DNA of 64,000 bases from Curvularia clavata (lineage: Eukaryota): positions 1,364,001 to 1,428,000 of the forward strand of contig CP089276.1 of NCBI GenBank assembly GCA_023920165.1, given 5' to 3'. The stretch's first letter is position 1. Every line of letters starts with the position of its first letter. The translations under genes and the position numbers were made by a program. Positions 51,394 to 53,839 of the stretch are shown one piece after another. A model generated the notes under the pieces. It did not search any database. It saw nothing but the letters and a program-made list of their open reading frames with translations, and had not been told where the DNA came from.

Positions 51394-53839
51394 CTAAACA
51401 TCTCTCCACACCCTCGAAGCCACCTTCCTCCTCTCGCCACGACCCAAATCTCTATACTCCCTCGCTACAGTACCACCTCCCTCGCTTCCCTCCGCAAGCA
51501 TCTTTGTTCCCCTTCTCTCCTCGACAAACATCGTCGGACGTCCGCGCTCATCGATACCCTTCCACGACCTCACCACTGTCACATCACCCGAGCGCGCACC
51601 ATCAGAGTCTGTGTAATCATCCGAGTGCCTGGAACGTGTAGGTGGAGGCGATGCAACCGAACTCTTGCGACCATGGCTCTCTGTGGCGGATATGTGGCGA
51701 TATAGGGGTGGCGGAGGGTGAGATGAAGATGCGGACGAGGATGGAGGAGGAGTTTTAATCGCGCGGCGGATGGGAAGAGGGGAGATGTGACGGACGTGGA
51801 TTTCTTCGTATTCTCTGCTGACCAGAGGAGGTGAGAGAGGAGGCGGGATACGGCGCTGCTTGTCTACTCTCACGTCGTCGTCGTAGTCCTTTCCGCGTGA
51901 TACTGAGTAGTGCCTAGTACGCAGTTTTTCGTAGTCTTCGCCTTGACGGGATGCAGGGCGACTCTCGTGTAGTGGGCGCGAACGGCTGTAATCCTGGTAT
52001 TGTCCAGAGCTCTTTTCCCTAGACACGTCTTCCTTGACATATCTTGTCCTACCTCGGGTGTCTGGATCTGGTGCTTCACTCTTTCGGTTGCCGCCAAAGT
52101 GTACACGCGGCCCACCAACCTCGACGTGCATGCTGTCCTCGCTTTCACGCACGCTGGATCTTCGGTAATATCTCCTTTCACGATGGTCGCTACTGTCAAG
52201 TTTCGGGACGCTGCAAGTTGGGGACTCGGCAGTGCCCGACGTCTCGTCCGAGGCACGATACGAGCGTCGTCGCTCTGGGATAACGCTTCGATATGGCTGA
52301 TGATGCGATGCAACACGCACTCCTGCTTCCTCATCCCGTCGTTGTTTATAAGAAGTAATACGGACAGGAGATATACTTGGACTTCTAGCCCGGCGTTCAG
52401 ATGTCCCATCACGAAAGACTGTCCTAGCAGATCTTGGACGAGAAGGCGGAGGAGAAGGACTGAGTTCGATGATCCTAGAGCTTTGACGACGCAGCGGCCT
52501 TTTTTCGATATTAATGTATGTTTGAGTGCGGACGATGTCTGGAGGGGGCCATACTTCATCGGACTTCGAGGCCCGACTTGGAAGTGTTTCAGGCGGTGCA
52601 GGATAAGCCCGATCTTTATATGATGGTTCTAGACGTACAATATCAGGTAGGGGCCACACATTGCTCATGCGTCGTGAAGATGGAGGAGTCGATGAAGGTG
52701 TGCGGATCGATCGCTCCCTTGTCAGTGACCGTTGGAGTGCTCGCAAACCCAAGTGCGCTTGGCTGGACTCACGTCTAATCACCCGAGGACGACTTGGGTG
52801 GTATCTCTCAACATAGTACTCACTTCTAGTCCTTCGTCTACCTCTATCTTCGTCTTGGTCAACGTGGGATCGGGATGGTTCTCCGGGCCAGTCGCATGGC
52901 TCATCAGCATGGCACTTGCGAATGCGGGTGTACCGACTACTCGACCTATAGCTCTCCAATTTCTTTTCGCATCGGCGGCAGGGTGTGGAGACCAGCGTTT
53001 TGCCAGGCAGAACGGGGTTGTTCCGGTGGAAACCTGCAGAGCGCATCTTACCGCAGTGACTGCAAGTGTGACAGAGCATAACTGGCACAACTACTTCTTC
53101 CACTGGTGGTGTCTGGGCTGATTGAGACTGGCTGTGTCGATTGTAGTGATATTCTTCTCTCCTGTGCCTTGAACTTGACCGAACAACCTCTTGAGCATGT
53201 CGGTAAGCTGGTACCATGGTGCTGACAGATGGGCTCTGATGCTGGCTTGACATTTGACTCTCTTGGTGGCCGTACGTCCAACTGTTGTGACGAAATGGAG
53301 GTGGAGGCTGAGCGTTGTAAACTCCAGGTCCGTGAGCGTATGCTTGAAATCCGCCTTGCATCGGCATTTGTTGCTGTCCTTGTTGCCCTTGCTGTGCCTG
53401 AGGGTCACCCAGCGGTGGCGGACGCTGCGGAATACCGTTTGGACCATATGCTCCTAGAGCATGCCCTGAATGAGGATATCCGCCCTGGTATCCTGGATAC
53501 GAAGCGACAGAGGACGGAGCGGCTGGCGGAGGCGTCGGTGCTGCGGGAGGGGCTCCAAGTCCAGGGAATTGCTACAAAAAGATGCGTGTGAGCTTTAATA
53601 CTGTGCCAAATCAGACTGGGGCAGCCAGAGAAAGTACTTCTACAACCGTTTGTCAGTCCATTCCCAGTGTCAGATGGCGAGCGGAACACTTACACTTGAT
53701 AAAGATATGGATTACCCGGCTGAGCAACGGACCCAGGATACTGATTAACAGGCTGAGTTGGGTTTTGAGGTTGCGCATTGCTACTGCCAGGGCGGCCCAT
53801 ATACGATTCGAAAGCTCTTCTCTGCTCCTCGTTCGCCAT
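51394..53839 (-). CDS. Arg/Ser-rich protein with a Cys/His zinc-binding motif (773 aa); first intron is a [D2,3] stwintron
   Basis: Exon 1 53839-53696 (MANEEQRRAFESY..PYLYQ, 48 codons) and exon 2 53571-51394 (QFPGLGAPP.., in frame with ORF 51394-53367). Confidence 0.78.
53572..53695 (-). other. [D2,3] spliceosomal twin intron (stwintron), 124 nt
   Basis: CAA|GT[GTAAGT..ACTGAC..TAG]AAGT..GCTCAC..TAG|CAA. Removing the internal 54-nt intron (53693-53640) rebuilds a GTAAGT donor for a 70-nt external intron. Confidence 0.78.

Follow-up and report, generated by a model that had tools for sequence, protein, structure and literature searches.

The window analysed in this study is a stretch of 64,000 nucleotides of the Curvularia clavata contig CP089276.1, and all positions given below without a locus name refer to it. 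On its minus strand the window carries a gene, single-copy in the genome, whose two exons are separated by an intervening sequence of 124 nt (53572-53695). Exon 1 (53696..53839) is 144 nt long and comprises 48 codons from the ATG; its N-terminal 15 residues are conserved across Pleosporales in the homologue alignment. Exon 2 (51394..53571) extends over 2178 nt, corresponding to 725 codons plus the stop, and is Arg/Ser/Pro-rich. Upstream, likewise on the minus strand, maps the 3' part of a neighbour (54264..54900) which, from its WWDYG motif, we take to be an STT3-like oligosaccharyltransferase gene, with a 51-nt last intron. Downstream, a convergent 480-codon frame (49752-51194, plus strand) gave no Pfam match and no tblastn match in the two orthologous loci described below (L002 and L003).

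The predicted protein of 773 aa contains 13.5% R, 12.9% S and 11.6% P. Pfam returned nothing under an E value of 0.1 for the five proteins tested, the best hit of a PDB profile search had an E value of 0.33, and an Atlas search retrieved one ascomycete cluster at 0.89. The AlphaFold model has a mean pLDDT of 41.5 and consists mostly of low-confidence coil, its more ordered parts being a C-terminal hairpin and a Cys/His cluster near exon-2 residues 163-211. This cluster (52969..53073, minus strand) includes C167, H168, C170, C173, H182, C198 and C201, which fall in nearly invariant columns, and could possibly form a zinc-binding module. The gene probably encodes a disordered, Arg/Ser/Pro-rich protein of Pleosporales, and our best guess is that this product would be a disordered scaffold that includes a small module for zinc binding. 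On the basis of composition, a resemblance to the disordered proteins of septal pores was also considered.

A sequence-only reading had described the 124-nt insert as a [D2,3] spliceosomal twin intron (stwintron), and the coordinates and motifs that it proposed all match the minus-strand sequence. Specifically, the first two bases of the split outer donor (GT, 53694..53695, minus strand) lie in phase 0, as they do in L002 and L003. They are followed by a putative U2-type inner intron of 54 nt (53640..53693, minus strand), with the donor GTAAGT at 53693-53688, the branch motif ACTGAC at 53657-53652 and the acceptor TAG at 53642-53640. The remainder of the outer intron (53572..53639, minus strand), which is 70 nt long when the detached GT is counted, starts with AAGT and contains a weak branch motif, GCTCAC (53593-53588), and the acceptor TAG (53574-53572). 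The inner intron therefore splits the outer donor between bases 2 and 3, and GT plus AAGT reads GTAAGT once it is excised. A feature absent from the earlier reading is a candidate decoy 3' splice site within the outer intron (53601..53615, minus strand), made up of TCTGAT at 53615-53610 and a CAG ending at 53601; an outer intron ending there would measure 41 nt, with a stop one codon later.

By computing the reading frame for each splicing route, we found that two-step removal fuses the 48 codons of exon 1 in frame with the 726 codons of exon 2 (stop included) and gives a frame of 773 aa, as had been claimed. The two predicted failures were reproduced as well: unspliced exon 1 halts at GTG TAA, with a stop after 49 aa, and joining the inner donor to the distal AG shifts the frame, with a stop after 87 aa. 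Removal of the inner intron alone leads to a stop after 126 aa. When all GT and GC donors were scanned against all AGs, the strong inner donor failed to open a frame above 600 aa, whichever AG as far as 53401 it was paired with. Since the incomplete and skipped routes tested all end in an early stop, the inner splice sites appear to be needed for the protein.

The same scan bears on two other arrangements. The first comprises either two tandem introns that flank a micro-exon of 2 nt (AA) or recursive splicing, which would use an AG/GT point. In both the window and L002 the AA is indeed followed by GT, but the micro-exon route stops after 104 aa and L003 has GG at that place. As for recursive splicing, its hallmark is an AG directly before a GT at the intermediate site, whereas here the TAG of the inner acceptor is followed by AAG and the GT originates on the 5' side of the inner intron; we give this whole arrangement next to no likelihood. 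The second is a different single intron, such as one with the donor GTAATC (53715) and its AG at 53541, which retains a frame of 756 aa but deletes the conserved NPYLYQ and QFPG motifs flanking the join, and which we regard as extremely improbable.

Among the matches listed by a metagenome scan, in which 596 candidates were obtained, at least two are orthologous loci. The L002 protein is 40% identical, its nearest named proteins being from Ophiobolus, Paraphoma and Parastagonospora, and STT3-like motifs lie upstream of it as in the window. L003 shows 80% identity to Lentithecium fluviatile over its third exon. Both loci retain the [D2,3] layout in phase 0, with different splice-site letters, and both are in frame solely after two steps. 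L002 reads GT/GTGAGT..ACTGAC..TAG/AAGT and L003 reads GT/GTAGGG..GCTAAC..CAG/AAGG, slashes marking the borders of the inner intron, so that in L003 the letters of the inner donor, branch and acceptor differ from those of the window. The rebuilt outer donor is GT+AAGT in the window and L002, and GT+AAGG in L003. Inner introns measure 54, 51 and 52 nt in the window, L002 and L003, and outer introns 70, 57 and 52 nt, respectively. The outer branch motif is off-consensus in the window (GCTCAC) and in L002 (GCTTAC), while ATTGAC in L003 fits. Full removal restores the conserved frame, which is 773 aa in the window and 767 aa in L002. The identical layout in both orthologous DNA loci further bears out the [D2,3] reading.

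Pairwise alignments of the inner-intron interiors were no better than shuffles (589, 1715 and 1538 of 2000 reach the score), and for the outer-intron interiors two pairs scored slightly above shuffles (86 and 31 of 2000), the third pair showing no such excess (409). When the interiors were shuffled 200,000 times, the full layout came up 0, 2 and 1 times for the three loci, with a pattern that had been loosened once these were known. Signals kept while the spacers drift are what selection on both introns would leave. The comparison also weighs on the view that the insert is an ordinary intron of 124 nt which is spliced out in one step, using the weak donor GTGTAA, with the inner signals being incidental. 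Such a removal yields the identical 773-aa frame, and mature RNA or protein cannot separate it from two-step splicing; moreover, the accessible text of PMC7138796 reports that a complex intron of Lipomyces starkeyi can alternatively be excised in one step. Nevertheless, the donors that it would use (GTGTAA, GTGTGA and GTGTAG) fit poorly with the GURWGY consensus given in the accessible part of PMC12403724, and in all three loci they lie two bases from a stronger donor. In addition, single-step removal gives no reason for the inner branch, YAG and AAG to be kept in three of three loci with diverged interiors, and we consider it quite unlikely.

Some further details of these loci were observed. 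The unspliced junction encodes Val and then a stop (TAA at 53695-53690, TGA at L002:2713-2718 and TAG at L003:427-432), which is expected of a phase-0 [D2,3] donor, yet is kept where the inner donor is off-consensus. L002 carries a tandem CAGCAG at the outer acceptor (L002:2815-2826), which fits one extra residue in three public models, and L003 has a second, ordinary-looking 57-nt intron downstream (L003:768-824) that the gene in the window lacks.

Public protein models, which are themselves predictions, were compared with the proposed join. A search with exon 2 gave 142 homologues, of which 120 were listed; nearly all those listed are called hypothetical, and the named ones belong, as we assume, to Pleosporales. 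The exon-1 pattern matched neither prokaryote genomes nor viral contigs (0 matches in each). Exon 1 is present in 35 of the 120 listed homologues, and among these 35 models seven show the exact join, three are one residue longer, 19 have Val next and six are odd. The statement that standard predictors miss such introns therefore holds for 25 of the 35 models, in which the join is missed, and fails for the ten that are exact or one residue longer. The Val is the product of the leftover GT when a predictor picks the inner donor; a retained plain intron also yields Val, and in 12 of the 19 the residue after the Val is not one that a GTRxG donor would specify. In the Bipolaris oryzae model (P0002) NPYLYQ is joined to QFPG, matching the prediction for the window, and in the Lentithecium fluviatile model (P0123) FNP is joined to FAVPP, at the join predicted for L003 (FNP to FAPIPP). 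Of the readings tested, the [D2,3] one is the sole reading with both consensus donors and a join seen in orthologous proteins.

The public Curvularia clavata model (P0003) maps onto the window letter for letter. It splices from the inner donor to the AG at 53425 and adds three introns to regain the frame; over 53423-52611, a region that is one open exon, about 210 of its residues are in wrong frames. Ten models start inside the intervening sequence. The five longest of these peptides can be reconciled with YAG followed by AAGT and with an outer intron measuring 46-79 nt, and four of the five allow a branch motif as well (shuffle fraction 0.004-0.026). This back-translation is a compatibility test; the five include two closely related peptides, and the shuffle fractions for the acceptor alone are 0.07-0.31. 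The other five entries, short ones of 10-18 aa, showed no compatibility with YAG followed by AAGT, and four proteins with no recognisable exon-2 start were left out of the back-translation. As a separate observation, the model P0043 starts with MVS about 54 nt before exon 2, and could be a plain intron read through, that is, a lineage loss of the inner intron.

Eight RNA runs were listed, none matching half of the words, and four were examined, all as contigs, which drop rare forms. The contigs on this gene have a depth of 2-5 and cover parts of exon 2, with the nearest ends at 53483. At this shallow cover no contig of the four runs spans the mature join or an intermediate lacking 53640-53693 only. 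The upstream gene served as an RNA control: runs X1, X2 and X6 skip its 51-nt last intron and are therefore RNA. Over the donors, X5 gave a single exact contig of 189 nt (53658-53846, depth 3), unspliced through both of them, which may be pre-mRNA, a retained intron or DNA.

The X5 contig, being the sole one over the donors and unspliced, could also be taken to mean that exon 1 is not joined at all, with translation starting at the in-frame ATG at 53367 or exon 1 standing as a separate short frame, and many database entries do begin inside exon 2. A start at 53367, on the other hand, discards exon 1, which heads 35 of the 120 listed homologues, together with 68 exon-2 codons that hold 12 invariant columns. 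The late-starting entries are mostly contig-derived calls and probably intron-blind, and we hold this possibility to be highly improbable.

How often the motif arises by chance was assessed with a half-pattern consisting of the double GT donor, branch, YAG and RAG. The window contains one match, and 150 Markov-3 simulated windows contain none. Across the 32.4-Mb genome there are 19 matches versus 21 for the reversed control, which is background, and for this reason the motif by itself is weak evidence. A possible outer 3' end accompanies seven of the 19 matches, and one of the 19, namely this locus, has such an end together with open frames to either side; it is the frame constraint and the orthologues that lift the case above chance. 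The other 18 matches were rejected as coding-frame stwintrons, by a test that is blind to UTR cases and to short flanking exons. A DNA search for similar copies of the stwintron elsewhere in the genome, at E values up to 10 and with very common words skipped, returned the self-match alone. An RNA structure drawing the intron ends together was also looked for, and folding was weaker than shuffles in three of three loci (z 1.5-1.9). Five similar 74-nt stretches within 5 kb (G000:C7:2822479-2827244, L017-L021) match the half-pattern; they have possible outer 3' ends and no open frames across, and look like a degenerate repeat region.

All together, we propose with considerable confidence that the 124-nt intervening sequence is a phase-0 [D2,3] stwintron removed by two ordered U2 reactions, the inner one first. 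In the first step, the spliceosome would pair the nearest strong sites and excise the 54-nt inner intron by intron definition, joining GT to AAGT into a consensus donor that is not present in the DNA. This rebuilt donor would then pair with the distal branch site and AG, and the 70-nt outer intron would leave, so that exon 1 would be joined in frame to exon 2 to encode the mostly disordered protein of 773 aa. As in [D1,2] cases, splicing may at times run directly from the inner donor to the distal AG in this gene, and mis-spliced RNA would presumably decay.

The accessible passages of the cited papers allow this arrangement to be compared with known stwintrons. Types [D1,2], [D2,3], [D5,6] and [A2,3] have been demonstrated (PMC7138796). 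The claim that this class is described in filamentous ascomycetes agrees with its demonstration in other fungi (PMC5639578, PMC7138796), and its rarity with the report that nearly every known stwintron is of the [D1,2] type, others being seldom met (PMC12403724). The [D2,3] stwintron of bioDA occurs in Sordariomycetes and Botryosphaeriales and was experimentally characterised in Trichoderma reesei, whereas Pleosporales bioDA has a plain intron at the stwintron position (PMC5639578). The bioDA gene and the present one have in common that the inner intron splits the outer donor between its second and third bases, that the constituent introns are short and that the arrangement is retained over a wide clade. 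They are unrelated genes, however, and bioDA is experimentally characterised while the Curvularia case is known from sequence alone; in addition, the host intron of bioDA is known in outgroups, whereas here it is known from stwintron-bearing loci alone.

The [D1,2] and [D1,2]/[A2,3] stwintrons include those of lipS and of the Helminthosporium solani alternative oxidase and the sister stwintrons of Xylariales (PMC5639578, PMC5587772, PMC12403724). Like the case proposed here, the [D1,2] types have a donor-disrupting nesting with two ordered U2 reactions by intron definition, and one-step missplicing leaves a frameshift; they differ in splitting the donor one base earlier. Mis-spliced products of [D1,2] stwintrons have been detected in reads and are presumed to be removed by NMD (PMC12403724, PMC9024468). 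Sister stwintrons are similar copies, some with terminal inverted repeats, while this stwintron is one copy and folds below shuffles. In the [D5,6] stwintron of a reticulon-like gene and the complex introns of Lipomyces (PMC7138796, PMC6616335) the donor is rebuilt after inner excision, as here, but the split position is another one and they are linked to alternative splicing, of which there is no evidence here. This gene was not found in the titles and accessible passages of the literature on stwintrons, spliceosomal twintrons and nested introns.

For the age of the inner intron we assume that Curvularia belongs to Pleosporineae. The crown of Massarineae, which include Lentitheciaceae, is dated at 130 million years and Pleosporales at 206-211, according to the accessible part of PMC7912389. 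The earlier reading had proposed to date the gain of the inner intron by aligning orthologs, and on the three loci it appears older than the split of two Pleosporales suborders; we infer a single gain before that split, parallel gain being the alternative. Given the assumed placement, a single origin would make the inner intron older than about 130 million years.

The [D2,3] stwintron at this gene is probably real, the mechanism itself being already established. In the accessible text of PMC5639578, PMC7138796, PMC12403724 and related papers, bioDA is the sole other [D2,3] gene named, and the present gene would add an independent, apparently order-wide case in Pleosporales. The many genomes available for this order make it possible to follow where the inner intron was gained or lost, and to put the stwintronisation model to the test. 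The stwintron also explains a recurring annotation fault, namely the missing join in 25 of 35 public models.

A regulatory role, in which the stwintron would be a gate on expression kept for that purpose over more than about 130 million years, we consider unlikely; its basis is the one unspliced contig and the stop pattern, and the latter also follows simply from the donor consensus. If such a gate existed, the strong inner intron, the off-consensus outer branch and the stops would make the protein level depend on how efficiently the RNA is spliced, the unspliced form would code for a short peptide with the best-conserved N-terminal motif, and a [D2,3] stwintron would have a regulatory role rather than reflect evolutionary lock-in.

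As a minor observation on the remainder of the gene, a stop-free stretch of 252 codons (51870-52628, minus strand) overlaps exon 2 in another frame and is partly used by the public model; it is probably incidental.
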